From: a bacterium
GTDB lineage: Bacteria > Bdellovibrionota_C > UBA2361 > RFPC01
Direction: 5' to 3'
DNA length: 64,000 nucleotides
Assembly (NCBI GenBank): GCA_030431715.1
Contig: JAUIIO010000007.1
Span: 33,756-97,755 of the forward strand
Shown here in pieces: positions 5,017-47,186 of the stretch (its first letter is position 1; every line of letters starts with the position of its first letter). Both the position numbers and the translations under genes were made by a program. Under the pieces are notes generated by a model, which saw nothing but the letters and a program-made list of their open reading frames with translations, was not told the origin of the DNA and searched no databases.

Positions 5017-5053
5017 CGGCTCCCCGCTTTATCTTCTGCTGTGAAGAGCGCGG

Positions 5054-9231: not shown

Positions 9232-9382
9232 AGTAAACCAGTATAAAATAACCTGCAGTGGTGTTATGCCGTACTACCGGCTCCTCGATACTTTACAGTG
9301 AGTACGAGAAATTCTTAGTGCCATAGAGTCCTGTGCATATTCTTGCGTATCCACAGGGGAGAAAACAGGCTAGGCTTTTTAT

Positions 9383-9694: not shown

Positions 9695-9699
9695 TGAGA

Positions 9700-11265
9700 T
9701 TACTTTGAATCTCTGGAAGAGAATTCTTGGATAAATGAAGTAACTGCTTTTGAGAACTCTTTATCGGTATAGTTTCGCTTTTTTTGTTCTCGTCGATGGT
9801 GCGATACCACGCTTTCTTTACGGAGTGAATGAATCATTCCGAGATTTGAAAGACATGCTCCAATAATTGAAAATCTTTCGTTTGGAGAGATGCGTTTATC
9901 GATCTCTTCGAGATTCTTGTATAAGAGTGCCTTATTATCAACATGAATAATATCACCGTTGTCATCGAGTGCATTTTTTAGCGTATATTTATGTTTCTCG
10001 GGAGATGGGCAGGCAAGATCGGCATAGAGGAGACCTGATTCCAGATCGCACTGTCCAAGATCGAGAACAAGAGAACCATCGGCTTCAAGATCGTATCGTA
10101 GAGTGAAAGTTTCTTGCTGATTGTCATATGGCGACACTATAAAAGAGATACGTGCCTGTTTGTTTGTCCCCCCTGTATCACGCGCGAATACGCTCACGCG
10201 AGGTGTTAGCTTACGTCGTTCACCATCCCAGTTTTCAGGAGCGGATCCTTCACATATGGCTTTTGCCATTTCTTTATGAATGTCTGTCATGGTGGATAGA
10301 AATGTGAAGATTTCAATTGCATGCAGATAAGTCGGGACCATCAGTGATGAAGCTTTCAGGTTCTCTCCTTTAAGCTCTGGCAAGAATTCATCCATGATAG
10401 GAAACGTATTTTTCTCTATGACACTTACTATTCTTTCTCTGGAGACTCTTCTATTTGGATATTCTGGCCAGTAGTAAAGACCGGGAATGGTATTTGGATA
10501 ACGACTGTAACAGCCTACCAGTGCGCTCATATATGCAGAAGCCTCAGTTACGAGGCGATCGCTCTCGTCGACAAATGACATGAGAAGCGTTCTTGCTGGT
10601 ACTCTACGCTTTTTAAAATGTGCGTTAAGCGCTGTTTTAAATTCTGTAATAGCATCAAATGCCTGACCAGCATGAAGCCTAAAAGACGCGTAGAGTCCTT
10701 GTAAGTTTACTCCTTGCTCTCTGTGTCCGGTAACGAGTTCACTCTCCGGGTCAGTGATGTTATACGCAGTATGTAAAACATTGTACGCGACAATAGGATC
10801 CGTTCGGACAAGATTTACGAGCAATCGTTCTTCCTCAGAGTCACGCATTTGGACCTGTTCCTTAAAGACTTCGTCCAGAGTCTTATCGCCCGTAGCAAGT
10901 GAGGTAATGAGGGTAAGCTTTACGTAATCAAATGCAAAATCTACTGCCTGCTCACACCAATAGTGATGTTGCTCAGGGGTGATGCCTGCTTCCTCAGCAT
11001 TGGTAAGATTCTTGTCGTAAAGTTCAGCTGAAAGCTCGCGGCGCTCCTGTCTTGTCAGCCCAAATTCATGATTACCATTAAACTCTGAAGTATAGGGTTT
11101 TCGAGTTTCTCCGATCTCAACAACACGCTCATGTAAAGCGAGGCTAAGCGATTTTAAGTACTCTTTTGCCAGTACAATCTTTTCTATATTACGTAAGGTT
11201 CTTTTATCTGTGGGATCCTCATTCTCATGAGAGGAGGTATGTTTGTTAGATAGATTTTGATGCAT
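9700..11265 (-). CDS. hypothetical protein (521 aa)
   Basis: Long intact ORF. Translationally coupled to the downstream 278-aa ORF, with a stop-to-start gap of 2 nt. Confidence 0.45.
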   Translation of the reverse strand: MHQNLSNKHTSSHENEDPTDKRTLRNIEKIVLAKEYLKSLSLALHERVVEIGETRKPYTSEFNGNHEFGLTRQERRELSAELYDKNLTNAEEAGITPEQHHYWCEQAVDFAFDYVKLTLITSLATGDKTLDEVFKEQVQMRDSEEERLLVNLVRTDPIVAYNVLHTAYNITDPESELVTGHREQGVNLQGLYASFRLHAGQAFDAITEFKTALNAHFKKRRVPARTLLMSFVDESDRLVTEASAYMSALVGCYSRYPNTIPGLYYWPEYPNRRVSRERIVSVIEKNTFPIMDEFLPELKGENLKASSLMVPTYLHAIEIFTFLSTMTDIHKEMAKAICEGSAPENWDGERRKLTPRVSVFARDTGGTNKQARISFIVSPYDNQQETFTLRYDLEADGSLVLDLGQCDLESGLLYADLACPSPEKHKYTLKNALDDNGDIIHVDNKALLYKNLEEIDKRISPNERFSIIGACLSNLGMIHSLRKESVVSHHRREQKKRNYTDKEFSKAVTSFIQEFSSRDSK

Positions 11266-11267
11266 AG

Positions 11268-12104
11268 CTAGAACTTGATTTCTCTTCTATACATCGCTTC
11301 CTGATATTTTTCTGAGAGCGTGTAAGTAACGTGAGGTGTTGCTGAAGGTGAGAGCATAAGGCTTGGCCCATCAGAATTGAGTGGAAATCTCGCCTGAAAT
11401 TGTCCCTGTGGCCCCTTGCCATGAAAAGTGAGGAGCTGAGAAGAAGAGCCTTTTTCTATATCGATTTCGTAACCGGTTTGTAAGCTGTATTGGTCAGAGG
11501 AGAATTTTCCGGAAATCTTTGCACGGTTGCTCTGAAGTGAAGTTGTAACATTAAGCTCGTTTGTAAGTGCATCAAAAGTTGAGAAAAACTTAGAGTCCTT
11601 GAGAGTATCGTCCGGCATAAAAGACTGGTGTGCTGCGAGCTCTCTCCATAAATTTTTAAGGTCTCCGCGGATAGTATAGCCCTGATCGTTATATTGAAAG
11701 GTAACTTCCTTGATTCGTACTTGTACTGCTGGATTTTCTAGTTGTACTCCGTTAAATATTGCCTCGCGGTTTAAAACGAGACTAGCGCCAATATCCTCGT
11801 TACCTGCGGCTAGACCAATTCGATCCTTGTGAAATCCAACCCCAACGTTCTCTCCCCACGCAACTGCTCCTACTTCATCCTGACTAAAGAATGAGGACAC
11901 AGCTTTGTCATTGTCACGTACTCCAGCGAAAAAATCCCCACGTGCGGTGGCGCCGAATCCTGCACCTATATTTTCGCGGTAAAGATCAACGCGGTTCGCA
12001 TTTCCGCTAGCTCCTTCATTTTTTGTGGCAAGTCGATCGCCCAGACCCGAAGGAGAGCCGAGCTCTTTGCTCACAAATTTGATGTCGGATTCAATTTCAT
12101 TCAT
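11268..12104 (-). CDS. hypothetical Gly-rich protein ending in a C-terminal Phe (278 aa)
   Basis: Gly/Ala-rich beta-like N-terminal half. The terminal ...YRREIKF is reminiscent of an outer-membrane beta-barrel signature, but no signal peptide is seen. Confidence 0.4.
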   Translation of the reverse strand: MNEIESDIKFVSKELGSPSGLGDRLATKNEGASGNANRVDLYRENIGAGFGATARGDFFAGVRDNDKAVSSFFSQDEVGAVAWGENVGVGFHKDRIGLAAGNEDIGASLVLNREAIFNGVQLENPAVQVRIKEVTFQYNDQGYTIRGDLKNLWRELAAHQSFMPDDTLKDSKFFSTFDALTNELNVTTSLQSNRAKISGKFSSDQYSLQTGYEIDIEKGSSSQLLTFHGKGPQGQFQARFPLNSDGPSLMLSPSATPHVTYTLSEKYQEAMYRREIKF

Positions 12105-12237
12105 ATCTCTGTTATGAGCCGTATCGGCTCATTGTGTTGTTCTGCTGCGAAGTATGGGGTTGTAATTTAGATAATCGTGATTATCTACATGATATAACTA
12201 ATAAAAATAAACCCCAGCACCCTTTGGTGCGCATTTA

Positions 12238-12243
12238 AGGAGG
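12238..12243 (+). promoter_or_regulatory. Shine-Dalgarno AGGAGG for pirin
   Basis: Sequence ttAAGGAGGggctagATG. Confidence 0.5.
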
Positions 12244-12249
12244 GGCTAG

Positions 12250-12954
12250 ATGATTGAAATAAGAAAGAGCGAAGATCGGGGCCATGTTGACCATGGCTGG
12301 CTAAAAGCTAGACATACATTTTCATTTGCGTCTTACCACGATCCAAAGCATGTGAGATATCGAGTTTTGCGAGTAATGAATGAAGATACGGTTGCCCCGG
12401 CAAGAGGCTTTGGTACTCATCCACACGATAATATGGAGATCGTTACCTGCGTGCTATCAGGTGAGCTTGAACACAAAGATAGTATGGGCAATGGTGAAGT
12501 ACTTAAAGCAGGTGAGTTCCAAGTGATGACTGCTGGTAGTGGTATCACTCATAGTGAGTTTAATCCTTCACCAGATAATGAAACGCATCTCTATCAGATT
12601 TGGCTTTTCCCAGATGAGAAAGACCTGACTCCTCACTATGAGCAGAAGGCGTTTCCAGATGAGGGTGAAAATAGAAAGCTTCAACTTGTGGCGGCTAAGG
12701 GGCATGAGCAAGAGGGAGCCTTGCCAATACATCAAGATGTCATGCTTTACTTGAGTAATCTTAAGGCAGGAGAGGAGATTTCGTTGCCTCTTGAATCCGC
12801 ACGATATGGTTGGCTCCAACTGCTAAGTGGATCAGTCACGATCGAAGAAAGCCATAGCCTAAAGGCTGGTGATGGTGCTTCTCTTAGTGAAGTAGCTCGT
12901 CCGGTTGTTAAAGCAGCGGAAGATAGCAGGTTTCTATTCTTCGATCTTCCCTAG
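12250..12954 (+). CDS. pirin-family protein (bicupin; YhhW/quercetinase-like)
   Basis: N-terminal cupin signature HPHDNMEIVTCVLSGELEHKDSMGNGEVLKAGEFQVMTAGSGITHSE. Typical ~230-aa length. Confidence 0.9.
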   Translation: MIEIRKSEDRGHVDHGWLKARHTFSFASYHDPKHVRYRVLRVMNEDTVAPARGFGTHPHDNMEIVTCVLSGELEHKDSMGNGEVLKAGEFQVMTAGSGITHSEFNPSPDNETHLYQIWLFPDEKDLTPHYEQKAFPDEGENRKLQLVAAKGHEQEGALPIHQDVMLYLSNLKAGEEISLPLESARYGWLQLLSGSVTIEESHSLKAGDGASLSEVARPVVKAAEDSRFLFFDLP

Positions 12955-12964
12955 TGCCATTCTA

Positions 12965-13381
12965 CTAGCGGGTTCGACAACCGAGCCCGCGTGGCATACG
13001 CATGTCTTTGCAGCCGTGCTTCCGATCTTTTTTTGAGCAACTTCCCGGCTTCCAACCTGAGGGACATCTTTCAGGGGCAGGCCTGCTTGTATGTTGCTCT
13101 TTGTGGCTGTGGTGCTGTGCTCTTTCACGCTCACGTTCTAGACGATCTCTTTCTATCGCGAGATCGCGTCTTTCTTGTTCAAGGCGTTCTCGCTCTCTCT
13201 CGCGGTAGTACCGATCTCTATCGTAGTCACGATTTGAATATGTCGGGCGGTACCTTCCGTCGTCATAGTATCTACCGTTAGAGTCGTACCTACCATAATC
13301 GTTGTTCGTGCAAGCTGAGAAAATAAAAGCAAGAGTTAGAAAAAATGTCAGAGAGAGGATTCGGCTCATGTCGCGCTCCAT
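12965..13381 (-). CDS. signal-peptide low-complexity R/D/E/Y-rich protein (138 aa)
   Basis: Signal peptide MSRILSLTFFLTLAFIFSAC (lipobox-like Cys). Followed by YDSNGRYYDDGRYRPTYSNRDYDRDRYYRERERERLEQERRDLAIERDRLERERERA. Confidence 0.5.
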   Translation of the reverse strand: MERDMSRILSLTFFLTLAFIFSACTNNDYGRYDSNGRYYDDGRYRPTYSNRDYDRDRYYRERERERLEQERRDLAIERDRLERERERAQHHSHKEQHTSRPAPERCPSGWKPGSCSKKDRKHGCKDMRMPRGLGCRTR

Positions 13382-15496: not shown

Positions 15497-16657
15497 TCAA
15501 TCAATAATTCCATCTGTGTACTTGCGAATGAATGCAAGATTGTCTGGAGAGGTTATGTTTGCCCATCTTGAGATGTCAGAGCGTTCATAGCCGGGTAGTG
15601 CACAATTATAAGCGTCACCATTTGATACTATCCCCGCCAGTACCCACTGCGAATCGCGCCATACTGCGAGTGGTCCGCCGGAGTCTCCGTAGCAGGTATT
15701 TCCTTTTGTAATATCTTGTGAGTTATATACAACATCAATCCCGTCGTCCTCTACTCTCGTTAGGGTGTTTTGTGTCCCTCGTAGCTGGCGATACTGATAT
15801 GTTTCACTCGCTCCGAATCCAGCAAATACAGCAGATTCACCTCTTTGAAGATCGTTTTGAGTAAGTATCTGAATGATATTTGTTTGAATGCTATCCTCTA
15901 AGTAGAGGATAGCTATATCGTTTTCTTCGCCATTTCTATATTTGGGGTGCATGACACAACCTGAGACCGCTCTCCTGATTCCAGTACCATTGGTTACAGA
16001 AAGCTGTTCACATGAGATACCTTCCACACAGTGGGCTGCTGTGAGAATGACCTTTTCAGCAATTACGTTCCCTGTACAGTATTGATTGCCACGAAAGTCT
16101 ATTGGAACAATCGGAGTATCATTGAAATTACATACTGCACCATTAACGATACGGAGATGACCATTTTTAGTATACCTAGGGTCTTCTTGAGCGCTGTAGG
16201 CGGTTGTACCAAATGCTTCACAGACATCTGAGAAGAGCGGGTTGTTGTAACCATAGTCTTCATATCGACACGAGGACTCTTGATACGATTGGCAACGGCG
16301 AATTCCTTTCTGTACTTTTCGTAAAATACTGGCATCCGATATTGTGCGTAGCACTATGCTTCGATGACCTTTGCGTCTGGCTCTTGAGCGTTCGCGCTGA
16401 ACCTTTCGGAACTCATTCTTTGTAGATCTCTTGGCTCTTCGAAATGTAGTGCTTTCCTGCAAACTATCAACAAGCTCTCCTCTGCATCCGTTAGAACTTT
16501 TATATTGACGACAAGAGTACATGAGCCCTTCGGGACCGTAGGGTATATATGGTACTTGTGATAAGACGGGCTGCGAGAAAATAAATTGCGCTAGTATTGT
16601 AGCGCTCAAAAGAAGAATACCGGCGTTCTTAAACATAGAGAGTGGCCTCAGTAGCAA
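15497..16657 (-). CDS. trypsin-like serine protease with signal peptide (peptidase S1 family)
   Basis: Signal peptide. Catalytic His motif LTAAHCV and catalytic Ser motif GDSGGPL. Long pro-region with a polybasic RRKGHR segment. Confidence 0.85.
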   Translation of the reverse strand: MLLRPLSMFKNAGILLLSATILAQFIFSQPVLSQVPYIPYGPEGLMYSCRQYKSSNGCRGELVDSLQESTTFRRAKRSTKNEFRKVQRERSRARRKGHRSIVLRTISDASILRKVQKGIRRCQSYQESSCRYEDYGYNNPLFSDVCEAFGTTAYSAQEDPRYTKNGHLRIVNGAVCNFNDTPIVPIDFRGNQYCTGNVIAEKVILTAAHCVEGISCEQLSVTNGTGIRRAVSGCVMHPKYRNGEENDIAILYLEDSIQTNIIQILTQNDLQRGESAVFAGFGASETYQYRQLRGTQNTLTRVEDDGIDVVYNSQDITKGNTCYGDSGGPLAVWRDSQWVLAGIVSNGDAYNCALPGYERSDISRWANITSPDNLAFIRKYTDGIID

Positions 16658-23660: not shown

Positions 23661-25522
23661 GTGGCAGTAACAGTAGGATCGAACATAGCCTCTCTTCGGG
23701 CACAGAGACAGCTCAATCGCAGCTCGAACTCTCTTTCAAGTGTGTTTGAACGCCTTTCTTCCGGACAACGAATTAACAGAGCATCTGATGACGCGGCAGG
23801 TCTTGCCATCTCTGAATCACTTAACGTGGATCGAAAAGTTTATACGCAGGGAATGCGCAATCTCAATGATGGGATATCTCTGCTAAACATCGCTGATTCA
23901 GCAATTGCGGAACTTTCGAGTATCGTCATACGAATACAAGAGCTAGCAGAGCAGGCGGCCAATGGCTCACTTTCTCACACCCAACGAGACTCTCTTGATA
24001 GTGAAGCGCAGCAATTAAAAGATGAGTACTTCCGTATCTCACGTTCTACTGATTTTAATAATTTAAATCTCTTTGACGGATCAATTGAACAAGGTGTTCG
24101 GATTCAAGGAGGATATGGCATAGATGGCTCAATCTCCTCTTCGCTTGGTGGAGCGATGGGGGATGGAACGCTACAGGCCACTAATACACTTTCCCGTGGT
24201 AATGGTGGAGGAGAATCAGAGCTAAGAGACATTGATGGTGATGGGGTGCTTGATCTCATCGCTACGGGCTACGCTTATAGCACAGGTACAAATGGAACCA
24301 TCACCGTTTCACTGGGTAATGGTGATGGGACGTTTGGTGCAATGGAACGTTTGGCTCGAATGTTCCCACTGGCGCAAGTGCGTCTCTTTCCATCGCTGAC
24401 CTTAACAACGACGGAAAGCTCGATGTTGCTACAAGCTACTTCGGTGATGTCTCAATCTTACTTGGAAATGGAGACGGAACCTTCGGAGCAGAGCTAACGA
24501 TAAGCACTCCAGCAACTCAAGATCTGTCACTCGCAGATCTTAATAGTGATGGTTTTGTAGATCTAACGGTAGCAGAACGAACAACAGGCAATGTGATTAC
24601 ATTTCTTGGTAATGGAGATGGCACATTTCAAAGTGGCCAAACATTCTCAGCTACCGGAGGCTCCTCTGGCCTTGCCCTTGATGACATAGATGGTGACGGT
24701 GTCATAGATATTGTAGCTGTTAGTAACGAAGTAACTACGCTTCTCGGGAATGGTGATGGCACATTTCAAAGTGCGATTACGTATGCTACTGGTACAGGAT
24801 CTCAAGAGGTAACCATCGGTGATTTGAACAATGATGGTATACTGGATATAGCCACTGCCAACTTTTCAAGTGATGATGTTAGCGTACTTCTTGGTAACGG
24901 TGACGGATCGTTTCAAAGTGCCGTGACTTACGCTGCCGGCAACGGTGCATACGACATTCTGTTTGAAGATATGAATAGTGATGGAACTCTAGATATCCTT
25001 ACCAAGAATTCACTGGATAATTCTATTACGATATTACTTGGAGGTGGTGATGGAACATTCGAAAGTGCCGTATCATATGCGGCGCCCGGTGTGCATGGCT
25101 ACTCAGTTACAAGTGGGGATGTAAATAACGATGGCGTCATTGATATTGTCGCTGGGACTGCTTACAATCATAATGTATTGCTGGGAAATACTCGTGTAGG
25201 TATTGCACCCATTTTAGATTTTTCCCTTTCTACACAGGCTGACGCCCTTCAGGCCCTTGCTCCGTTAAGCCGCAAACTTGACTCGCTTTCTGCCCAGAGA
25301 GGTGTCATTGGAGCGTTTGAGTCACGACTTGCCTCTGCATTGAACACATTGCAGGCTACTAGTGAAAATTACGCTCTGGCTGAATCTAGGATTCGAGATG
25401 CTGATATCGCATTTGAATCCTCTCAGCTCACACGACTAAATATCTTGCAACAGGCCGGAGCGGCAGTGCTCGGGCAGGCAAATCAGCAGCCTGATATTGC
25501 CCTTCAACTACTGACATCATAG
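23661..25522 (+). pseudogene. fliC: flagellin with FG-GAP/VCBS beta-propeller-like central domain, interrupted by a +2 frameshift near 24335-24355 (or sequencing error)
   Basis: GTG start. N-terminal flagellin D0/D1 region (IASLRAQRQLNRSSNSLSSVFERLSSGQRINRASDDAAGLAISE...LNIADSAIAELSSIVIRIQELAEQAANGS) in ORF 23661..24497. C-terminal flagellin domain (SRLASALNTLQATSENYALAESRIRDADIAFESSQLTRLNILQQAGAAVLGQANQQPDIALQLL) in ORF 24593..25522. About eight D(L/I)NNDGxxDI...LLGNGDGTF repeats continue across the break in the +2 frame. Confidence 0.8.
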
Positions 25523-26135: not shown

Positions 26136-27059
26136 TTAATTTTGAATTTTACTACTCTGATAGGCGGTATAGGCCTTTTGTTGTTCCTGCCAGTAGTCTT
26201 CTGTGTTTCCTAGTACTCTTGCTAGGGCTTTCGAAATATCAGGATTCAGATCTGTTTTCGCATCAAGGATACTTTGCAGTTCCTCCTCTTCGAGTTGAAG
26301 CTTCGCAGCGACATTATCAACTGTAAGATTTCGTTTTTTCATTACCCTAGCGAGAATAACTCCTGGATGTTCAGCCGCTTTGACAGCTTTCGAGCGTGAG
26401 CTTTTCTTGAGTTGGGAAGCGTCCATAGTCTTAAGCTTTGCGAGCACTTCAGTGATCAAGAGATACTCGTACTTTTCAGGAGATACCTTTTCAAGTGCCG
26501 ATCGGAGCACGGGGGATATATTTCGCATAAGTACAATCGATGGCCCTGCCCCACGTCCTTTTGTTTTGTGGAGTTGAGCAGCAGCGTCATCTATCGCCTC
26601 CAGCGCTTCCTTTAGCATCATCTGAGAAGCTATATAGTTCTTTTGCTCTTCGTTTTTCTCTGAGGTTTTGTCTGAAGTAATTGCTGTTAGAATCGTTCTC
26701 AAACTATCTACATTATAAGGCTCTTTAAGAAAATGGGTAACACCTGAGAGATAGAATTCAGAGATATACAACGACTCATCATTTTTCGCTTTAATGAGAA
26801 ATACGGTGTTCGCTGCGAGGTTTGGATAAGATTCATTGAGATACTTGAGAAACTTCAGTATGTCTTCGCGCTTACTACTTGAGCGAATGAAAACGGCATC
26901 AAGTTTTGGTTTATTTTGAAGCTTTTCTTTTGCGTCTTTAAAATTCAGTGCGTAATGTAGCTCCGACTTTAGTACGAGTTGATTCATAACCTCTTTTAAC
27001 CGAAGTCGTGTCTTGGAATCAGTTTCGATAATGAGGGATTCTAACTTACGTATAATCAT
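26136..27059 (-). CDS. regulator with N-terminal receiver-like domain and C-terminal HTH (XRE/Cro-C1 type)
   Basis: C-terminal HPGVILARVMKKRNLTVDNVAAKLQLEEEELQSILDAKTDLNPDISKALARVLG is HTH_XRE-like. N-terminal ~120 aa has a CheY-like alternating beta/alpha pattern with a conserved Asp (KLDAVFI). Confidence 0.5.
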   Translation of the reverse strand: MIIRKLESLIIETDSKTRLRLKEVMNQLVLKSELHYALNFKDAKEKLQNKPKLDAVFIRSSSKREDILKFLKYLNESYPNLAANTVFLIKAKNDESLYISEFYLSGVTHFLKEPYNVDSLRTILTAITSDKTSEKNEEQKNYIASQMMLKEALEAIDDAAAQLHKTKGRGAGPSIVLMRNISPVLRSALEKVSPEKYEYLLITEVLAKLKTMDASQLKKSSRSKAVKAAEHPGVILARVMKKRNLTVDNVAAKLQLEEEELQSILDAKTDLNPDISKALARVLGNTEDYWQEQQKAYTAYQSSKIQN

Positions 27060-27119: not shown

Positions 27120-27575
27120 TTATTTCCCAAGAGCTTGAAGAATGCTAGTCGGATCGTATCCTCTGACAATGGTTGACCCGATCTTTGTGATTGGCACTCC
27201 ACCTCCTCCCCACTGGGTATGAAGCATCCTACCTTTCCTATCAGTTTTGATGTCGTACCTCGTATATGAGATATCGTTTTTTTCAAAGAGTCTTTCAACG
27301 GCCGTACAATATGGACACCCTTGCATTACAAGCACTACTGGTTTTTGAACGCGTGTGACCTTGCGCGGGTTATAGTTCGGATCGGGATGAGACGAAATGA
27401 GCGGTAATTGTGCCGGGGATTTTATTCTGCTTCGGTACCGCTGCGGAACCTGTTCAAGGCTGGTGACGTAGTGCTTCTGGCCGTATGAGTCAGTGTAGGT
27501 ATATACCTCGGCTGATACCGTGTTTGTAATACCAGATAGAAGCAGAAGGCAGATGAGAAAAAGTCCCTGTTGCAT
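27120..27575 (-). CDS. exported glutaredoxin-like thioredoxin-fold protein (CPYC)
   Basis: Signal peptide/anchor from the internal Met (MQQGLFLICLLLLSGITNTVSA). VVLVMQGCPYCTAVERLF...GGGGVPITKIG matches the glutaredoxin active site and GG motif. Confidence 0.65.
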   Translation of the reverse strand: MQQGLFLICLLLLSGITNTVSAEVYTYTDSYGQKHYVTSLEQVPQRYRSRIKSPAQLPLISSHPDPNYNPRKVTRVQKPVVLVMQGCPYCTAVERLFEKNDISYTRYDIKTDRKGRMLHTQWGGGGVPITKIGSTIVRGYDPTSILQALGK

Positions 27576-27779
27576 AAGAGTTAGATGTCGGAACCGTGGA
27601 AAAATAACTAAAGAATGGCAGAAAAAGTATCGAGAGGTAACCATATGGTTTTACAGCCTAAATTATTTTAGTTGATCGAAAAACCTGTTTTTTCATCTTA
27701 TTTGTACACAGGCTGAAGCAAGTAAGAGGGGATCTCAGATAGTGAGATAGGTGGTAGTGTTTTTTTAGTAAGGTTTTAC

Positions 27780-28391
27780 ATGCTCAAAGCCAGATTTCAT
27801 AAGAACTCTGATAGAGGCGCTGCCCTTGTAGAGACAGCTCTCGTTATTCCTGTGCTCGTATTGCTGCTGATTGGTGTTTACTACATCAATGCCAGAATGC
27901 ATGCTCACGGGCTCATTACAAATATTGCCCAAGAAGGATCCCGATTTCTCGCAAGGCGTGCCAGTCTTGGCGCGAATCCTCGTCGATCACAGATTTTCAT
28001 GCTGACAGATGATCCTAATACAACGGCGGATGAGACAGCTCTTGTGCCGCTTAATGTGCTTGGTAATCACGCTGCTGGTCATCAATATATGCGCAGGTTA
28101 CTAGTAGCAATGAATACTCGTGATTCAACTTTTCGAATTACACAGATACAAATTGAGACAGAGTTAATTACAGACATAAGCTCGACCTCTAACCCGAGTG
28201 GGAGTGGTTCTACAGCTGGTGAAGAGACAGATAGAATTCAGGCTATTATTCGTGCAACGATGGAGCCAGATGGTCTTTTCCCGGAAACAATGCTTGCGCC
28301 GATAGGACTCTCACCACTTACGGTCGCAGTTACTTCAAATCATCCTTATCTTTTTAGAGCTCAAAACGTAGGGGCAAATAATGGTAGCTAA
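27780..28391 (+). CDS. TadE-like pseudopilin (Flp-pilus minor pilin)
   Basis: N-terminal RGAALVETALVIPVLVLLLIGVYY is the TadE-like signature. Confidence 0.7.
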   Translation: MLKARFHKNSDRGAALVETALVIPVLVLLLIGVYYINARMHAHGLITNIAQEGSRFLARRASLGANPRRSQIFMLTDDPNTTADETALVPLNVLGNHAAGHQYMRRLLVAMNTRDSTFRITQIQIETELITDISSTSNPSGSGSTAGEETDRIQAIIRATMEPDGLFPETMLAPIGLSPLTVAVTSNHPYLFRAQNVGANNGS

Positions 28392-30183
28392 ATGGTTTAA
28401 GAAAGAAGCAGGTGCAACACTTGTTGAAGCAACACTGGTTGCTGGTTTACTCATTTCATTTGCTTTTGGAATACTCGAATTTGGAAGGTATTACTACTAT
28501 AAGGCAACTCTTCTTCGTGCGGCCAATAACGGCCTTGAGCTTTCTATACGTCACGCTGACATCCTAATCGATTCTACTGAAATTGATATGGATAAGACGA
28601 CTTCTGATAACAGTGCACCAGCCGAGCGCTTGAAGGCTGTCATTGATGAGATTGAGAGACGTGTGCTCACGCAAATAGACCTCGAAAGAGATTTGGTAGG
28701 CGCTGCGACTACAAGAGTAGCTGTGAATCAGAATATTACTACAAATTACAGCAATGCCAGTGCAACAGGAGAGCCACCGCTCTACGATCTCCCACCAAGT
28801 CGGGTACTGGTAATACGTCCTGGCGATCGTGGCAGGTATCTTGATCCGGCAACTAATACTGTCATTGAAGTGGTTCATCCTACGTATCCCGAGAGACAGA
28901 ACGGGGATGATTTTTTAAATATACTTCAAGAGCATCCTATTCTTATTGAGATCAATGCTCGTATGGCTTCTGTTATTCCACTTTTTCCTAATATTCCTAT
29001 CCGAGTTCAGGCAGTCGGTATCCCAGAAATCATTACACGTGGTATTCAAGGTGTTCCAGCGGAGCAAGAGCTTATAGATCCTTTTTGTGGAGACAACGTC
29101 TATCATAGCACTTTAGAGACTTGTGACATCGTTGATGGCGTATCTATGGGGGTAGATCCCGGTCACTTTTGTACAACGAGTTGCGAGCAGGAGCCGCTTT
29201 GTGGAAATGGTATTGTTGATGACGGAGAGGACTGTGATGGATGGCTCGTGCGAGAGGGATTGGATGATCTTGAAGAGGGCCTCAGAGAATGCGGTGGTGA
29301 TTGCAAAATTCGAGAGATTGAGCCGTGTGGTAATGGAAGGTGGGAGAAGGATGAACCGTTTTATGAAGAGTGTGATGCTTCTGCGAGTGAATCACTAACG
29401 AGAAATGTTGATGAGTACCTCTGTGTACAGTGTAAATGGTATGACATTACAGAGTGTCTATTTGGGAGTAATAGGATATCTGAGCCTTGCCTTGATCAGA
29501 ATATCCCAGCTGGATTTGAATGTATAAATTGTGTGCTCTGTGAGTGTGATAAAGATCCTGAAACAGGAGCAGAAGATTGTTCAAACTGTAAGGCTGGTAA
29601 GTGTGGTAACGGCATTAAAGAAGCGGGAGAGCAGTGTGATCGCTTTGATGGTACCAGTGACTCTTCTGAGTTCTGTAACGATTGCCGACTGGTAAAAGCA
29701 CTCTGTGGAAATAAAATTCGAGAAGAGCTTCCCGGCAGGTTCGATGGAGACCCACCATATATAGAAAAATGCGATATCGGAGCTCCAAATAATCCTGATA
29801 TTCCAGCCTCACACGTTTGCAGCGAGAATTGCACCATAGCATCCTTATGTCATAACAATAAGGTTGATAATGTAACCGCGCAATTCCCGGGCGATACAGA
29901 CTATTCTGAGGAGTGCGATGGGAATGCTGTTATTCCAGAAAAAGCTGACTTGCTTGCTCAAGACGATCACGAGTGCCGTGATTGTGCCGTACTCCCTCGT
30001 TGTGGAAATGGCCGAATTGATAAGGTGGGAAGTCATGTTGAAGAATGTGATGGATCAACGGGCGCGCCAGAAGGTGGGTACTGTGATGATGAGTGTAAGA
30101 AGAAGTGTAACATTGTTGCTGGGGTAGAAGGTACTCTTGATGATAGTGGGAGGTTTTGTGTTAGTAATGATATTGAATCTTAA
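28381..30183 (+). CDS. TadE-like pseudopilin fused to a Cys-rich repeat domain (Myxococcus cysteine-rich repeat type)
   Basis: N-terminal EAGATLVEATLVAGLLISFAFGILEF (TadE-like). C-terminal half carries at least six CGNGxxDxGExCD repeats (CGNGIVDDGEDCDG, CGNGRWEKDEPFYEECD, CGNGIKEAGEQCD, CGNKIREE...EKCD, CGNGRIDKVGSHVEECDG). Confidence 0.7.
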   Translation: MVAKWFKKEAGATLVEATLVAGLLISFAFGILEFGRYYYYKATLLRAANNGLELSIRHADILIDSTEIDMDKTTSDNSAPAERLKAVIDEIERRVLTQIDLERDLVGAATTRVAVNQNITTNYSNASATGEPPLYDLPPSRVLVIRPGDRGRYLDPATNTVIEVVHPTYPERQNGDDFLNILQEHPILIEINARMASVIPLFPNIPIRVQAVGIPEIITRGIQGVPAEQELIDPFCGDNVYHSTLETCDIVDGVSMGVDPGHFCTTSCEQEPLCGNGIVDDGEDCDGWLVREGLDDLEEGLRECGGDCKIREIEPCGNGRWEKDEPFYEECDASASESLTRNVDEYLCVQCKWYDITECLFGSNRISEPCLDQNIPAGFECINCVLCECDKDPETGAEDCSNCKAGKCGNGIKEAGEQCDRFDGTSDSSEFCNDCRLVKALCGNKIREELPGRFDGDPPYIEKCDIGAPNNPDIPASHVCSENCTIASLCHNNKVDNVTAQFPGDTDYSEECDGNAVIPEKADLLAQDDHECRDCAVLPRCGNGRIDKVGSHVEECDGSTGAPEGGYCDDECKKKCNIVAGVEGTLDDSGRFCVSNDIES

Positions 30184-32338
30184 GAAAAAGTTATCACACT
30201 TTCAGTGTGAAAGAGGTATGGCCCTTGCTTTTTTTGCGGTGAGTGCTCTTGTGATCATTGGCATGGTAGGCTTAGCCATTGATACGTATTTTGCGACAAC
30301 TTCTCGTACGCAGTACCAGTCTGCCGCAGATGCTGCCGCATATGCGGCTGTTGAAGGTTTCTATGATGCTTATGACCCATCAGATGGGGACTACCAAAAT
30401 GCTATGCAAAAAGGTATCTCTATGGCTCAAACTCGGGCTCAAGCGATACTTCAGCAAAATATGATTCGTCTTGTATCGAGTAGTAATATTAAGAACGCAT
30501 CAGCTCAAAACAATGTAAGCACCTCAGGAGGAACCAATGGAAGCCTTCAACCCGGTTTCTGGGTAGCCTCTGACTCATCTACAGCGCCTTGTTCGCCAGC
30601 ACCTTGCTTTTCCCCTTTAGATCTTGCGAGTGGAGATGAAGAAGTCCCAAATGCGTTTCGAGTAAATATTAATATTAGTGAACAGTCCCCCATCAGGACG
30701 TTCTTTATGGGAATACTTGGAGTCAATAACTACCGGCTAAGCGCAAGGGCGGTTGCAACCTCAGTCCCTCGTAGAGGCGCTTTTCTTATTGATTTGTCCC
30801 CATCTATTCATGGGACAACGCATAATAGTAGTGGCAGTGGAGCAATACAACAAACGCTTTATGCATATCCATTAAAGAATACGTGCAGTGCTTCTGACCG
30901 TGGACAGCCTATAGCCAGCGTTGATGAAATTTACGATCGTTCTGGAGATTCTGCCACTGGAGTAATCATCTCAGATGCCAGTAATCCCATTAAGATCTTT
31001 GACAATCTGTATAACGATACAAGTAGCGATCCTGAACCTGGAATGGATAGGATTCCCGGAATTTCATACAAATCAGATTTTCGTAAGGTTCCAATTTCAA
31101 CTCCTGAAACTGATTTCGATGGAACCACCATCAATAAATGCTTTGCCGTCGATGTCATGCGACAACCAGAGCCTATGAGTACTGTCTTACTCGGTGTTAA
31201 CACCGCACTTAATAACTTTGCGAATCGCTCAGTAAGAGGGGATCGTATTGGAGTATATGGGTTTGATGATTATGATGAATTTCTATCGATACGTTCCACA
31301 GTAGATGATGGCGGAGTTCCAAGTCTTATTAGCCCTGATATTGGTAGTAGTAGCTTTAAAAATATTACGGATGCAACGAAATCACCATTCACGCAGGGGG
31401 CTCTCGGATCACACGTCAATACCTTCCTCTTCCCGCAGTTTTTTAGCAATCTCAGTACAGGTGAAATTTATCCCAAGCCGGTGAATACAAATCTGAAAGC
31501 TGCTCTCGTTGAAGCACGGCGTATATTGGAAGAAGAGCCGGGTATGAGCAGCAGTGACAGCTTTGTTGTTGTATTTAGTGATGGTCGTAGTAACTGTATG
31601 AATGGCAGCTGTAATGCGCCGAGTAAGCAATTTACCAAAGGCGGTATCGATGATGCTGTTAATTATGTCTTATCTGAAGACTGGGGAGACGTTAATCTGC
31701 ACTTCGTTTTGGCCGGAAAAAATAGCATGCCTCATACCATTTTACAGGGTGGGCTAGATGAAGATGGTGACGGAAAAGCCGATACCTGTCTTGATGATTT
31801 TACTTCAAGAAACATTAAGGCTGCTTATCCTGGTGACCAGTATAAAGATTTCCGTGCTCGGTACAATTTTGTAAATGGTGATGCCAATCAAATAAGTGGG
31901 TATGGGAAAGTTCCAACTCGAATACTTTATCCCAGTAAGATTTATGATGCAGCAGTCGCCACCAGTGGCTTCTGGGTTCCACTACGTCCACCGTGTGTTG
32001 AGGGGACAAACCTTCTTGAGCGCATCGACAATCCTACTCCAGGTTCATATGCGGGAGCGTTTCACCGCGCCTGTAAGCAGCTAGGAGACGGGGAGAATCT
32101 CTCATTTAACAAGCGTGGGACACTGCCATCAGCATTACAGAATATACTCTATAAGAGCGATCTTGATGCCGGAGTGAGGGTTAATAACAGTTTTCCTAAT
32201 AGCTTGATTGGTCAGCACGGCAGGCTCTACTGCGACCCATACGGAAGAGATTTGGATACTCAGGTTCAGGAATTCATTAACCAGCTCATGAGACAAAACC
32301 CAATTCGGCTGGTAGCTAGCAGTTCAGATGGGCTATAA
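30167..32338 (+). CDS. TadG-like pseudopilin with von Willebrand factor A (MIDAS) domain
   Basis: From ATG 30167: MILNLKKKLSHFQCERGMALAFFAVSALVIIGMVGLAIDTYFA (TadE/G-like N-terminus). AFLIDLSPSIHGT matches the DxSxS MIDAS motif. Confidence 0.65.
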   Translation: MILNLKKKLSHFQCERGMALAFFAVSALVIIGMVGLAIDTYFATTSRTQYQSAADAAAYAAVEGFYDAYDPSDGDYQNAMQKGISMAQTRAQAILQQNMIRLVSSSNIKNASAQNNVSTSGGTNGSLQPGFWVASDSSTAPCSPAPCFSPLDLASGDEEVPNAFRVNINISEQSPIRTFFMGILGVNNYRLSARAVATSVPRRGAFLIDLSPSIHGTTHNSSGSGAIQQTLYAYPLKNTCSASDRGQPIASVDEIYDRSGDSATGVIISDASNPIKIFDNLYNDTSSDPEPGMDRIPGISYKSDFRKVPISTPETDFDGTTINKCFAVDVMRQPEPMSTVLLGVNTALNNFANRSVRGDRIGVYGFDDYDEFLSIRSTVDDGGVPSLISPDIGSSSFKNITDATKSPFTQGALGSHVNTFLFPQFFSNLSTGEIYPKPVNTNLKAALVEARRILEEEPGMSSSDSFVVVFSDGRSNCMNGSCNAPSKQFTKGGIDDAVNYVLSEDWGDVNLHFVLAGKNSMPHTILQGGLDEDGDGKADTCLDDFTSRNIKAAYPGDQYKDFRARYNFVNGDANQISGYGKVPTRILYPSKIYDAAVATSGFWVPLRPPCVEGTNLLERIDNPTPGSYAGAFHRACKQLGDGENLSFNKRGTLPSALQNILYKSDLDAGVRVNNSFPNSLIGQHGRLYCDPYGRDLDTQVQEFINQLMRQNPIRLVASSSDGL

Positions 32339-32465: not shown

Positions 32466-34667
32466 GTGGATCCCACGAAGTTAGTTGTTCGTTCGCTTGT
32501 CGATCTTGGCGAGCTTGAGAATATGCCGTCTGATGAGGCAATTTACTCTCAGTCATGTGGTGCTGTTCGCACCTTAGCAGATCTTGGACTTATTGATGAA
32601 CAGAAAGCGCTTAAGGCGCTTAGTGCAAAGCTCTACGTTGACTACGTTGATCTAGACAGACTTCCAGAGGGAAAAAGGTTAGAGCCGCAGCACTTTGAAG
32701 AACTAAATCGGGAAGTTCTCGCGCGTTATAAGCTTTTTCCACTTTGGAAAGAGAAAGAGAGCTATGTTGTAGCTACTGCCAATCCGTTTGATATGGAAGG
32801 TATTAACCTTCTTGAATTTGCCTTGGGGAAAAGGGTTCAGATCGTTTTGGCAGAGGAATCAAAGATTCAAAGTAGCCTTACAGAGTATTTTCCAGATGAT
32901 ATTTCACAATTTGATATCCTTAGCGATCTTGAGAGCGAAGACTACGTTGAAATTCTGGGAAAAAATAGCGCAACAGAGTCAGATGATATTAATGCCAGTG
33001 AAATTGATGCGCCACCGATTGTAAGGCTCGCGAATAAGATTATCGCTGATGCCTATGACAAGCGAGCAAGTGATATACATATTGAGCCTGGCCAAGATAA
33101 GATTGAGATTCGCTTCCGCATCGATGGGGTAATGCATAATTTCCTCGAAATACCGAAACGACTTCAGCCATATCTCCTTTCTCGTATTAAGCTTATTGCT
33201 GGCATGGATATCGCCGAAAAGCGAAAACCTCAAGATGGCCGGCTAAGAGTGCGGGTAAATCAAGTCCCGATCGATATGCGAGCCTCAAGTGTGCCAACAG
33301 CATTTGGAGAAAAGATGGTGCTGCGGATACTTCGATCAGACGCAGCGAAGGTCACTTTTAGTGAACTCGGGGTTTCTCCTCCAATAGAGAAAAAGCTTAA
33401 TAGTGCTTTAGACAAAAGAGGAAAACTTTTTCTCGTTACTGGTCCAACCGGTTCTGGTAAGACCACGATGCTCTATACGTTCTTAAACTATCTTCGAGAT
33501 GGAAAAACAAATATCCAGACGGTAGAAGATCCAATTGAATATCGCGTGCCCGGAATTAGCCAGATTCAGGTTAATAATGCCACGGGAGTTACATTTGCCA
33601 GCGCCCTGCGTTCTGTACTGCGTCAGGATCCAGATATTATTCTAATTGGTGAAATACGGGATGAAGAGACGGCATGTATCGCTTTACAAGCTGCTCAGAC
33701 CGGACATCTAGTCATATCGACTCTCCATACAAACGACGCGCCAAGTGCTGTGACGCGGCTTATGAACCTTGGTGTGGATCCGTTTCTTCTTGGCTCGAGC
33801 TTGGAAGGGGTTCTCGCACAAAGACTCATTCGCAAAACGTGTGTTGAATGTCAGCGACCTCTGACTGACATGCAGCTTGCTAAATACGGAGCATATATAG
33901 AGCATTATTCAATTGACCCGGCAACTCTCTATGCGGGTACGGGGTGTGAGGAATGTCACTACTCTGGCTACATGGGGCGGACAGGGCTCTATAGTTACCT
34001 GCAGGTTGATGGCAGGATAGAGGAGTGCATATACCGATCTGCTCCGACCTCGGAAATTGTTCATACGGCTTTACAAAGAGATTATACCGATCTTCACTTC
34101 GCAGCAATTGAGGCGGTTAAGAGTGGCATTACCACGTTTGATGAGGTGAAGGCATATCTGGTGCTACCTGAGATTACTGAAGTTGCTCATGTGGCTTCTC
34201 AGCTAAAAGAGGTTCAGGCTGTGGAGGAGGTGCATGAGCAGGAGGAAGAGCAGGTGCAGGAGGAAGAGCAGGAGCCTGCGCGAAATGATGGTATTGAGAA
34301 AACTAAGGTTTTACTTGTTGAGGATGACGAGGATACGCGGAGTGTTCTTTCGCTTCTCTTGCAGCGAGAGATGTACGAGGTTATTGAAGCTGAGAACGGA
34401 GCAGAGGGGCTACAGAAGGTCTATGAGCATAACCCCGGAGTGGTCATCTGTGATATGATGATGCCTGTAATGGATGGTAAAGAGTTTTTAAAGAAGATGC
34501 ATTCTCGCAAAGAAACAAAAAGTATCCCTGTTGTTTTCCTTACAGCAATTGATTCGGAAGAAAATGAGCTCGAACTCCTTGAGCTTGGTGCGCAGGATTT
34601 TGTCAGCAAGACTACCTCATCGAGCATTATGTTGACTCGTATCCGTAATATTTTAGAGCGACAGTAG
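32466..34667 (+). CDS. type II secretion / type IV pilus ATPase (GspE/PilB family) with C-terminal CheY-like receiver domain
   Basis: GTG start after a GGGAGG SD. T2SSE_N-like N-terminal domain. Walker A GPTGSGKTT, Asp box, His box. Tetracysteine CVECQ...CEECHYSG. C-terminal KVLLVEDDEDTRSVLSLLLQ...ICDMMMPVMDG...PVVFLTA receiver domain. Confidence 0.85.
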   Translation: MDPTKLVVRSLVDLGELENMPSDEAIYSQSCGAVRTLADLGLIDEQKALKALSAKLYVDYVDLDRLPEGKRLEPQHFEELNREVLARYKLFPLWKEKESYVVATANPFDMEGINLLEFALGKRVQIVLAEESKIQSSLTEYFPDDISQFDILSDLESEDYVEILGKNSATESDDINASEIDAPPIVRLANKIIADAYDKRASDIHIEPGQDKIEIRFRIDGVMHNFLEIPKRLQPYLLSRIKLIAGMDIAEKRKPQDGRLRVRVNQVPIDMRASSVPTAFGEKMVLRILRSDAAKVTFSELGVSPPIEKKLNSALDKRGKLFLVTGPTGSGKTTMLYTFLNYLRDGKTNIQTVEDPIEYRVPGISQIQVNNATGVTFASALRSVLRQDPDIILIGEIRDEETACIALQAAQTGHLVISTLHTNDAPSAVTRLMNLGVDPFLLGSSLEGVLAQRLIRKTCVECQRPLTDMQLAKYGAYIEHYSIDPATLYAGTGCEECHYSGYMGRTGLYSYLQVDGRIEECIYRSAPTSEIVHTALQRDYTDLHFAAIEAVKSGITTFDEVKAYLVLPEITEVAHVASQLKEVQAVEEVHEQEEEQVQEEEQEPARNDGIEKTKVLLVEDDEDTRSVLSLLLQREMYEVIEAENGAEGLQKVYEHNPGVVICDMMMPVMDGKEFLKKMHSRKETKSIPVVFLTAIDSEENELELLELGAQDFVSKTTSSSIMLTRIRNILERQ

Positions 34668-45548: not shown

Positions 45549-47186
45549 TTACCTCAGGGGGTTATTTGTACGGTGGATGAGTTTTTCTATTCGTTTGAGA
45601 ATAAGCTTTTTCTTTGTGCCTTTTGAGCAGTAGTCATCGGCTCCAGCTGCGAGCAAATTGTACTCAGTATCTTCATCGTTAATGGCTGTGAGCATGAGTA
45701 CGGGAAGGTGAGTTCCTTTCGGTGAATTTCGTAGCTCTTTTACGAAATCTTCACCGTTCATGACGGGCATCATGAGATCACATACTATGAGATTTGTAGA
45801 GTCGTTCTTTAGCGCATGTAGAGCCTCTTTTCCATTTGTCGCAGTTTGAATTTCATATCCTTCCTTCTCAAGGACCATGGTAAGAATATCGAGCTGATCC
45901 TGATTGTCTTCAACTAAAAGAATTTTTGGTTTTACTGCCTTCGCTTTTGTTTCCTTAAAGAAGTACTCGTTGTCCAAGTTTTCAAGTTGTTCGCGTAGTT
46001 CAGCTTCAATAGGATTTTCTATATCTTGTCTTCCGGATCGATGAATAGCGGCGGCAAGAAATCCACTGCTAATACGTTTTACGGCCCCTAGAACCTCCTC
46101 GAAAGTTGTTACCTTTTGTTCAACCTTGGTGAGGCCATCTTCTAGCAGACTGCGTGCACCAGAGCGTGATGCAAGTTCAGATATCTGCGCAGCACTAGCA
46201 CCGTGCTCAAGGAGTTTATGAAGTTCAGGATTTATCTCAAGAGCACTTTGGAGATCTATCCAGCCCTGATACGCGCTGTGCTCACACACCTCACAACCTC
46301 TTCCAACCATATATTCGAAGTCTGAATCTGGTTGTAGTATTGGTGGTAGCGTTGTAATGAACTCACTTGAGATAGGTGTTCTTTTGGAGCATTTCTTACA
46401 AGATTGCCTTACAGAGCGACTCATAAATGAGGCAACAAGTAAGTTATAGAATCTCTTAATCGCTTCTTTCTCGTCTCGAAAGAGATTCCCCGTTTGCAAT
46501 ATAGCCTCAACAGAATCATCGCTATCGACGCCGAGAAGTATCAGGGATTCTTCTGCAAGTTCAAGTACTCGGGTGAGGTCTTGTGCTGTGCGAGCTTTAT
46601 AGCAGATTCGAGCATCGGGCCGGAGTGAATAGCACGTACGCAAAGCATCTTTTCCTGGCGTTCGTTCTCTATCAAAGTTACAGAGCACGATACCTTTTGG
46701 AGCAGCAATGATCTGTCCCAGTACGTTTGTATTATACTCAGCCTGTTGTTTTTGGAGGGTTTGAAGATCCGATTTTTCAGTTCTGATATCTTTAAAGAGG
46801 AGAACAGCCTCTTTGGTGTTCATCCGCTTCTGTCTCTCAACGGTGCAGCAAGCATAGGTATTAGCTTTGAGTTTCATGCGCAGCGTTTTGGGAAGAGAAG
46901 CGCTGGTCGCTCTGGTGTTGAGAGTTGTAGGTTCCGCAATTGTCTTTAGCTCAACGGAAGTTAGAATACTCTTCCAAAATGCCTGTGAGCAGGCGAACTC
47001 GCGTGAACTTAACTTCTCTCCTTTAAAGAATGTGAGGTGAAGAGCCTTTTCTTCCTTAAGGCTTAACTCTAATTTTGTTGCTTCTCCGCGGGTGGCCTCT
47101 TCTATGATGCGTGGGAGAAATTGCGAGATAGCGGTGCTCTCGATAGTGAGACTGCCTGAGCTCTGATTGTTTGTATTCGTATCCAT
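45549..47186 (-). CDS. degenerate GspE/PilB-like domain (Walker A lost) fused to C-terminal receiver domain; paralogue of 32466..34667
   Basis: The C-terminal tetracysteine region CKKCSKR...CEVCEHSAYQGW and helices TTFEEVL are retained. The Walker A position reads NFDRERTPGKDALRT. The C-terminal receiver ILLVEDNQDQLDILTMVL...VCDLMMPVMNGEDF...PVLMLTA is highly similar to the receiver of the 733-aa ATPase. Confidence 0.7.
   Translation of the reverse strand: MDTNTNNQSSGSLTIESTAISQFLPRIIEEATRGEATKLELSLKEEKALHLTFFKGEKLSSREFACSQAFWKSILTSVELKTIAEPTTLNTRATSASLPKTLRMKLKANTYACCTVERQKRMNTKEAVLLFKDIRTEKSDLQTLQKQQAEYNTNVLGQIIAAPKGIVLCNFDRERTPGKDALRTCYSLRPDARICYKARTAQDLTRVLELAEESLILLGVDSDDSVEAILQTGNLFRDEKEAIKRFYNLLVASFMSRSVRQSCKKCSKRTPISSEFITTLPPILQPDSDFEYMVGRGCEVCEHSAYQGWIDLQSALEINPELHKLLEHGASAAQISELASRSGARSLLEDGLTKVEQKVTTFEEVLGAVKRISSGFLAAAIHRSGRQDIENPIEAELREQLENLDNEYFFKETKAKAVKPKILLVEDNQDQLDILTMVLEKEGYEIQTATNGKEALHALKNDSTNLIVCDLMMPVMNGEDFVKELRNSPKGTHLPVLMLTAINDEDTEYNLLAAGADDYCSKGTKKKLILKRIEKLIHRTNNPLR

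Follow-up and report, generated by a model that had tools for sequence, protein, structure and literature searches.

A TadE/TadF-like minor pilin with a predicted disulfide-rich repeat tail in a three-gene Tad-like cassette

Three-gene cassette of Tad-like minor pilins

We analyzed a stretch of 64,000 nucleotides (hereafter, the window) on contig JAUIIO010000007.1 from a bacterium of the lineage Bdellovibrionota_C, focusing on the gene at positions 28381..30183 (the focal gene) and the protein that it encodes. A previous sequence-only reading of this DNA had described the gene as a TadE-like N-terminus fused to an array of cysteine-rich repeats. The coordinates given there are exact: the frame on the plus strand is uninterrupted and real, and the product has 600 aa. 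The focal gene is one of three overlapping genes, each of which encodes a protein with similarity to minor pilins of tight adherence (Tad) pili:

27780..28391, plus strand: first cassette gene, short TadE-type minor pilin of 203 aa (PF07811, 26.1 bits at a cut-off of 22.9, E=9.3e-6)
28381..30183, plus strand: focal gene, TadE/TadF-like modular minor pilin of 600 aa with a pI of 4.3
30137..32338, plus strand: third cassette gene, large TadG-like minor pilin of ~720 aa (Tad, PF13400, 30.4 bits; Tad_C, PF09977, 27.9 bits)

As judged by these domain assignments, the order of the cassette matches tadE, tadF, and tadG, with the focal gene in the middle. The first two genes overlap by 11 nt, and the likely start of the TadG-like gene is the ATG at 30167 (product N-terminus MILNLKKKLSHFQCERG/MALAFF), which overlaps the 3' end of the focal gene. 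These overlaps suggest translational coupling of all three genes. The focal ATG is preceded by a Shine-Dalgarno-like GGGG at a distance of 6-9 nt. With TadE/F/G-like products of 203, 600, and ~720 aa encoded by adjacent genes, the cassette has the composition of a trio resembling the Kil Tips of Myxococcus xanthus that are discussed below.

N-terminal signal and pseudopilin core

The focal protein can be divided into the following parts, where the bit scores of repeats refer to the custom profile described in the next section:

28381..28413, plus strand: leader MVAKWFKKEAG, with cleavage predicted after G11, which would place Glu16 at position +5 of the mature protein
28414..29076, plus strand: pseudopilin core, residues 12-232, defined by ~45 homologues and an AlphaFold2 (AF2) model
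29086..29454, plus strand: cysteine-rich repeats 1-3, residues 236-358 (20.4, 14.5, and 9.2 bits)
29455..29601, plus strand: irregular 8-Cys knot, residues 359-407, which interrupts the array (custom-profile score -8.7, not a canonical unit)
29602..30105, plus strand: cysteine-rich repeats 4-7, residues 408-575 (23.1, 8.1, 5.4, and 13.7 bits)
30106..30180, plus strand: C-terminal 25 residues with the final Cys pair

The N-terminus displays the characteristic features of a class III signal: (i) a short basic leader, (ii) glycine at position -1, (iii) glutamate at position +5, and (iv) a hydrophobic helix that follows (MVAKWFKKEAG/ATLVEATLVAGLLISFAFGIL). Residues 11-51 score 36.2 bits against the Pfam TadE profile (PF07811; cut-off 22.9, E=6.6e-9). 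A scan of the whole window in six frames revealed only two class III motifs, one in the focal gene and the other in 27780..28391, whose product has the leader ...SDRG/AALVE. The TadE-like N-terminus proposed by the sequence-only reading was thus confirmed, since PF07811 scores above its threshold and, in the family described below, Gly -1 is near-invariant and Glu +5 is invariant or nearly so. That reading had also suggested a check for a prepilin-peptidase site and had named a Sec signal peptide as the finding that would contradict it. A prepilin-peptidase motif is present as G11/ATLVE16 (G/ATLVEA), and cleavage after G11 is predicted from this motif. The TadE profile match and the conserved glycine and glutamate positions support a TadE-type class III signal and reject a Sec signal.

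To find relatives of the focal protein, we performed an exhaustive phmmer search of 1.84 billion representative proteins, which returned 62 proteins at E<=1e-3. About 45 of them align to residues 1-235 of the focal protein and not to its tail. These pilin homologues have in common the G/[AS]TxVE[FA] motif, the hydrophobic helix, the LRPG[DE], HPT, and HPxxVE motifs, and one conserved proline; the respective motifs in the focal core are LRPGD (145-149), HPT (166-168), HPxxxE (185-190), and PLFP (200-203). In an alignment of 26 homologues, E16, P147, G148, and P186 are invariant, while G11, R36, R146, H166, P167, and P200 are near-invariant. The PF07811 profile scored above the Pfam threshold in 9 of the 9 fused homologues tested.

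The core contains no cysteines and is predicted to begin with a hydrophobic alpha-1N helix, followed by another helix and a sheet of five strands. An AF2 model built with an alignment of 44 sequences reaches a pLDDT of ~90 across most of the segment from residue 10 to 222, dipping at 108-128, and shows a long helix (4-57), a helix at 78-100, and the five-stranded sheet; the model obtained from the single sequence was useless (pLDDT 37). A Foldseek search with the focal model found no solved structure at E<=1e-3, and the family profile had no match among PDB sequences. The word-indexed protein search with the focal protein returned only the query itself, word-indexed profile searches with the pilin alignment A2 and the TadG-like alignment A6 gave almost no matches, and no loci were detected when genome and metagenome contigs were scanned with the pilin alignment A3. 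The family thus came to light because the exhaustive representative search was used.

Based on these features, the focal protein is predicted to be a complete Tad-type minor pilin followed by a 365-residue repeat array that is rich in predicted disulfides. The fusion described by the sequence-only reading is therefore upheld, but not a bare N-terminus as the pilin part, because a whole conserved pseudopilin (residues 1-235) precedes the tail.

Cysteine-rich repeat tail

All 38 cysteines of the focal protein are located within residues 236-593, in a tail of 365 aa (residues 236-600). The C-terminal part is indeed cysteine-rich and repetitive, as had been noted, although both its length (about 400 aa) and its cysteine content (50+) had been overestimated. 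The tail is composed of (i) seven 4-Cys units (residues 236-273, 274-315, 316-358, 408-441, 442-489, 490-540, and 541-575), (ii) one irregular 8-Cys knot, and (iii) a terminal Cys pair, which together account for all 38 cysteines. The 4-Cys units are long and irregular (34-51 residues, with long insertions in units 5 and 6) and have the general form CG[ND]G...E.CD...C..C. The tail is strongly acidic (pI 4.1, with 81 Asp+Glu and 30 Lys+Arg). In the AF2 model, pLDDT is ~70-77 over most of repeats 1-3. An irregular cysteine-rich segment occurs at the place equivalent to the knot in the closest clade of homologues. Six or more repeats of the pattern CGNGxxDxGExCD had been noted. In this literal form the pattern is found in one unit only (at residue 274), whereas its relaxed form, CG[ND][GNK]...E.CD, is found in six units.

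The curated TIGR02232 (NCBIfam) and DUF4215 (Pfam) profiles report neither the whole protein nor the isolated tail. When single units were compared alone, the best scores with TIGR02232 were 16.1 (unit 4) and 16.0 bits, below the cut-off of 20.8, and a single unit scored 14.6 bits with DUF4215, below the cut-off of 27. The tail nevertheless has phmmer matches to long non-pilin proteins with cysteine repeats (E 2e-12 to 4e-5), and 7 of the 9 such proteins tested pass the TIGR02232 cut-off, with scores of up to 207 bits. From these seven proteins we collected 52 distinct repeat units and constructed a custom profile with the consensus CGDGIVDAGEQCDGTDGVGSGQTCSADCKLE. The profile is partly circular, as its source proteins were found with the focal query, although their TIGR02232 membership is independent of it; against this profile the focal protein scores 46.3 bits, with seven positive units, whereas 200 composition-preserving shuffles of the tail have a mean of -18.6 (sd 10.6) and a maximum of 4.1.

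Thus, the predicted membership in the TIGR02232/DUF4215 class fails at both curated cut-offs, an outcome that the sequence-only reading had itself named, for TIGR02232, as contradicting it, and is retained as homology to TIGR02232 proteins. We call the tail TIGR02232-like because of its similarity to bona fide members, despite the scores below the cut-offs, and by sequence we classify its units as divergent, irregular members of this repeat class. The attribution of the module to myxobacteria was too narrow: the repeat matches include LPXTG-anchored proteins (P0010 and P0011), and DUF4215 has also been reported in a diatom adhesive-trail protein. A full-text literature search for TIGR02232, DUF4215, and PF13948 revealed no report of this repeat linked or fused to a pilin.

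Variable tails across the pilin family

Nearly all members of the pilin family carry a C-terminal tail after the core, often behind a Pro/Thr/Ser-rich linker, and these tails vary in both length and type. The closest clade (P0002, P0003, P0004, and P0006; 540-579 aa, 33-36% identity) has the same layout as the focal protein. P0009 (779 aa) contains 92 tail cysteines in canonical CGDG...EECD units, a member from the related locus L011 (443 aa) has a different repeat with 6 cysteines, and small knots are found in other family members. In the family members with Cys tails, the number of tail cysteines ranges from 2 to 92, and it is even in 40 of the 42 cysteine-containing tails (binomial p=2e-10), as would result from full disulfide pairing in an oxidizing compartment. 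The tail of the middle pilin also differs from cassette to cassette in related contigs, being composed of CGDG-type repeats, a Cys-free proline-rich sequence, or the 6-Cys repeat. We therefore classify the focal protein, from its sequence, as a long-tailed member of a family with a modular, exchangeable C-terminus.

Conservation of the cassette in related loci

The gene order of the window (a short TadE-like pilin, a TadE-like pilin with a tail, and a TadG-like pilin), which is complete there, is found again in all related loci that are sufficiently complete for a judgment:

L002: complete order, with the third gene truncated at the contig end
L003: genes two and three, on a short contig
JGI contig of P0006: full order
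L004: all three positions, with a first gene that has no Pfam TadE match and a third gene that runs off the contig
L005/L006: complete order, with a third gene that runs off the contig
L007: full order
L008: two tandem cassettes (5259..13330)
L010: one cassette in this order and a second TadE/TadE/TadG-like trio with a 187-aa TadE in the middle (988..9350)
L011: full order (7775..11674)

Orthologues of 27780..28391 occupy the same position in L002, L005, L007, L008, and L010. A scan of genome contigs with the TadG-like alignment A6 detected three loci (L009, L010, and L011); the same scan of metagenome contigs detected none. L009 belongs to a metagenome-assembled genome (MAG) of a 'Deltaproteobacteria bacterium'. 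One 'Bdellovibrionales bacterium' MAG comprises both the L010 and the L011 contig and so has at least three cassettes. No Tad machinery adjoins the cassette at the informative related loci, where the cassettes are free-standing. The presence of several cassettes per Bdellovibrionales-like MAG, combined with the variability of the tails, fits interchangeable tips of different specificity.

The third product of the cassette, the TadG-like protein, lacks the glutamate at position +5. It contains a DxSxS motif (FLIDLSPS) resembling a metal ion-dependent adhesion site (MIDAS), whose residues D218, S220, and S222 do not vary among the aligned TadG-like proteins of related loci, and an SDG-type motif is also conserved. 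A comparison with PDB sequences gave only a weak match to the vWA (von Willebrand factor A) domain of TRAP (E=0.29), and the Pfam VWA profile did not match; a vWA fold in this protein is possible and unproven. The NCBI call for this protein (P0066, 706 aa) apparently starts at Met28 (MALAFF...), which would omit the leader before the conserved Gly26.

Comparison with known systems

Canonical TadE and TadF are proteins of ~190 aa encoded within the flp-tadV-rcpCAB-tadZABCDEFG operon. The focal protein has the PF07811 domain and the G/xxxxE motif of TadE and TadF of Aggregatibacter actinomycetemcomitans, and its gene likewise lies just upstream of a tadG-like gene; it differs in its length of 600 aa with the grafted array, and its cassette is isolated within the 64-kb window.

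The closest analogy is provided by the Kil pilus of Myxococcus xanthus, a Tad-like pilus with four interchangeable heterotrimeric Tips, each formed by KilM, KilL, and KilN (Herrou et al. 2025, PMC12075869). All three proteins have many predicted disulfides and are homologous to TadE, TadF, and TadG. KilM, a bona fide pilin, is short, the C-terminal regions of KilL are extended, and the large KilN has a C-terminal domain that forms the extremity. Three of the four Tip cassettes are located outside of the kil clusters. In the same study, structural similarity revealed Tip-like complexes in Bdellovibrio and Bradymonas, similar tips were predicted for TadEFG of pathogens, and hidden Markov models of Tip1-4 matched only Myxococcota (PMC12075869). 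Since these models are confined to Myxococcota, membership of the window cassette in Tip1-4 by sequence is unlikely.

The two systems have several features in common: (i) a cassette of three genes for TadE/F/G homologues, one short, one C-terminally extended, and one large, (ii) many predicted disulfides, (iii) several cassettes per genome, located apart from the machinery, and (iv) variable exposed modules. They differ in gene order, which is short-extended-large (E-F-G) in the window, whereas in Myxococcus the large KilN is encoded between KilM and KilL (for instance, Mxan_0354/0355/0356). The extension in the window is a 365-residue tandem TIGR02232-like array, a feature that does not appear in PMC12075869. 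The putative complex in the window may have a role in contact-dependent predation, the sole hint of which is the occurrence of relatives in Bdellovibrionales and Deltaproteobacteria MAGs.

A similar modular design is established for the type IV pilins PilB, with a vWA module, and PilC, with a lectin module, of Streptococcus sanguinis (PMC8179133, PMC9934059). Like the focal protein, they combine a class III signal and a pilin module with a functional module that is grafted onto the C-terminus and displayed on the pilus. PilB and PilC are type IVa pilins of a monoderm with defined vWA and lectin folds, whereas in the window a Tad-type system carries an array of repeats rich in predicted disulfides as its grafted module.

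The array itself shares with TIGR02232 (the 'cysteine-rich acidic repeat', formerly the Myxococcus cysteine-rich repeat) and DUF4215 the acidic, tandemly repeated 4-Cys unit CG[DN]G-x(4-6)-E-x-CD ... C-x(2-3)-C. In contrast to those repeats, its units are longer and irregular, score below both curated cut-offs, and are broken by the 8-Cys knot. Overall, the window cassette is a variant of the already described Tad/Kil tip minor pilins with a different domain architecture; it is an incremental addition and not a new principle.

Proposed function of the focal protein

We consider it probable that the focal protein is the modular TadE/TadF-type minor pilin of a three-gene cassette and is located at the tip of a Flp/Tad-type (Kil-like) pilus. 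By analogy with the systems described above, its most likely role would be that of a modular tip pilin displaying an adhesion or recognition stalk. The model builds on the observed class III motif, domain conservation, repeat homology, synteny, multiplicity of cassettes, and even cysteine counts.

The proposed pathway comprises the following steps: (i) the class III signal, whose motif is observed, would insert the focal protein into the inner membrane, (ii) a prepilin peptidase of the TadV/CpaA type, for which no gene was found in the window, would cut after Gly11, (iii) the 38 tail cysteines may pair into 19 periplasmic disulfides, as suggested by the even counts in the family, (iv) the alpha-1N helix would bundle with those of both neighbor products to form a heterotrimer, which, by analogy with the KilL/M/N Tips and TadEFG, would prime a Flp/Tad-type (Kil-like) pilus and remain at its tip, and (v) the acidic, disulfide-stapled array of seven units would be shown at or beside the tip, where it may serve as a rigid, protease-resistant stalk or as a recognition surface for a substrate or prey.

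Several observations weigh against this model. First, only tadE-like and tadG-like neighbors of a tad locus were found in the window; a class III motif scan of the window and Pfam scans of most of its larger open reading frames (ORFs) found no flp, tadV/cpaA, cpaF/tadA, tadBC, or rcpA/cpaC. Second, the only type IV filament gene that adjoins the cassette encodes an ATPase of the PilB/GspE type and not of the Tad type. Third, the tail beyond repeat 3 is poorly modelled (AF2 pLDDT <50). Fourth, published models place KilN/TadG and not KilL at the distal end of the tip (PMC12075869), so the focal protein need not be the principal adhesin.

The sequence-only reading had proposed either a pilus-tip adhesin or a cargo delivered by the pilus. 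The first proposal fits the conserved cassette of TadE-, TadE-Cys-, and TadG-like genes and the Kil Tips (PMC12075869), with the reservation just made about the principal adhesin. The second finds no support, as the array is covalently part of the pilin. We rejected the cargo reading since the array is continuous with the pilin core and has no evident cleavage or docking feature.

Genomic surroundings and alternative explanations

Two neighboring genes could be relevant to the assembly and folding of the cassette products:

32466..34667, plus strand: PilB/GspE-type ATPase with an N-terminal MshEN and a C-terminal receiver domain (T2SSE, 423 bits; MshEN; Response_reg)
27120..27644, minus strand: protein with a glutaredoxin/thioredoxin fold, a CPYC motif, and an apparent Sec signal peptide, divergent from the cassette (Pfam Glutaredoxin, E=2e-6)

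The ATPase gene starts 128 nt downstream of the cassette on the same strand, with no convincing terminator in the gap, and its best NCBIfam matches are PilB and GspE, both under the equivalog cut-offs. This arrangement suggests the main alternative to the Tad-type model, in which the focal protein is a pseudopilin of another type IV filament or of a secretion-type pseudopilus driven by the adjacent motor, and the cysteine array belongs to a piston or short fiber that acts in the periplasm or on the cell surface, instead of sitting at the end of a long Tad pilus. The class of the motor and the failure to find Tad machinery in the window agree with such an assignment, which is, however, unlikely for three reasons: (i) the adjacency is not conserved, since no ATPase gene follows the cassette at L008 (which has two cassettes), L009, or L010, (ii) the names and descriptions of the Pfam families PF07811, PF13400, and PF09977 refer to Tad/Flp pilus proteins, and (iii) no gene for a platform protein (PilC/GspF) or a secretin was found nearby. 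Whether the ATPase is part of the cassette is uncertain.

Another explanation, quite unlikely in our view, is that the focal protein is an unprocessed bitopic protein of the inner membrane that forms no filament, with the TadE-like helix acting as a mere signal-anchor for a periplasmic disulfide-rich domain. A plain anchor would give no obvious reason for the conservation of Gly -1 and Glu +5, a pilin-like head of 200 residues is conserved, and the strict synteny of three pilins argues for common assembly; on the other hand, no peptidase or machinery genes were found in the window, and the TadG-like neighbor without Glu at +5 would suit an anchor. The reading of the focal protein as a Sec-secreted or surface cysteine-rich adhesin that resembles TadE by chance, for which many plainly secreted or anchored TIGR02232-repeat proteins such as the LPXTG proteins P0010 and P0011 could be cited, is highly improbable and effectively refuted by the TadE scores, which exceed the Pfam threshold in each of the nine fused homologues tested, by the G/ATLVE motif with Glu +5 directly before the hydrophobic stretch, and by the homology of the adjoining 200 residues to ~45 pseudopilins. 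The Tad-type tip pilin thus remains our preferred assignment.

The product of 27120..27644 could be a periplasmic thiol-disulfide oxidoreductase acting on the 38-Cys pilin, and its link to the cassette is speculative. At L002, the one related locus checked, no glutaredoxin-fold equivalent was found upstream of the cassette, and a role of the CPYC gene product as a dedicated disulfide enzyme was therefore set aside.

Other genes of the window were noted in passing. With two regulatory inputs, the ATPase of 32466..34667 has an unusual architecture for a motor beside Tad-type minor pilins. A second receiver-domain protein, encoded by 45549..47186 on the minus strand, matches only the C-terminal quarter of the T2SSE profile (positions 275-369) and is possibly a degenerate regulator of ATPase origin, related to the 32466 gene. 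Between the flagellin region and the cassette, 26136..27059 on the minus strand encodes a protein of 307 aa with no Pfam match and with a C-terminal region that, by eye, resembles a helix-turn-helix of XRE/HigA type. The flagellin gene itself (23661..25522, plus strand) is present as two ORFs, the first with Flagellin_N and the start of an FG-GAP region, and the second with four FG-GAP_3 repeats and Flagellin_C. A three-frame reading gives one continuous flagellin gene with a frameshift near 24340, and an independent Logan assembly has the same two ORFs; this flagellin, with its FG-GAP insert in the variable region, is either a pseudogene or an assembly error.

The gene at 36926..40039 on the plus strand encodes a secreted-looking protein of 1037 aa that combines a metallopeptidase domain of reprolysin-like (M12B) type with a C-terminal tail that is highly basic. 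Further secreted hydrolases are a trypsin-like protease (15497..16657, minus strand) and a dockerin-containing protein (1218..2591, minus strand). The secreted hydrolases of the window are compatible with a predatory or degradative lifestyle.

Implications for adaptable pilus tips

Tad pili have long been regarded as simple adhesive fibers. In 2025, interchangeable minor-pilin tips were shown to give the Kil pilus of Myxococcus its prey range (PMC12075869). A broader proposition, which we regard as doubtful, is that Bdellovibrionota-like bacteria possess a repertoire of free-standing TadE/TadF*/TadG cassettes, in which the hypervariable determinant of specificity would be the TadF-like pilin and not the TadG-like one alone. 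Disulfide-rich modules (TIGR02232-type arrays, 6-Cys repeats, or small knots on Pro/Thr linkers) would be swapped between the cassettes and would retarget a predatory or adhesive pilus to other prey or surfaces, while the window cassette would perhaps be coupled to a phosphorylation- and cyclic di-GMP-responsive PilB-type motor instead of a Tad ATPase.

The window locus and its ~45 relatives point to the logic of adaptable tips outside of Myxococcota, in Bdellovibrionales-like lineages. In comparison with Kil, it is the TadF-like subunit that carries the exchangeable module, and this module can consist of many copies of the widespread TIGR02232/DUF4215 repeat in a long array. If this array is displayed at the pilus tip, it would provide the first functional context for the TIGR02232/DUF4215 repeat, and domain swaps between cassettes would offer a tractable handle on target choice by predatory or adhesive pili.

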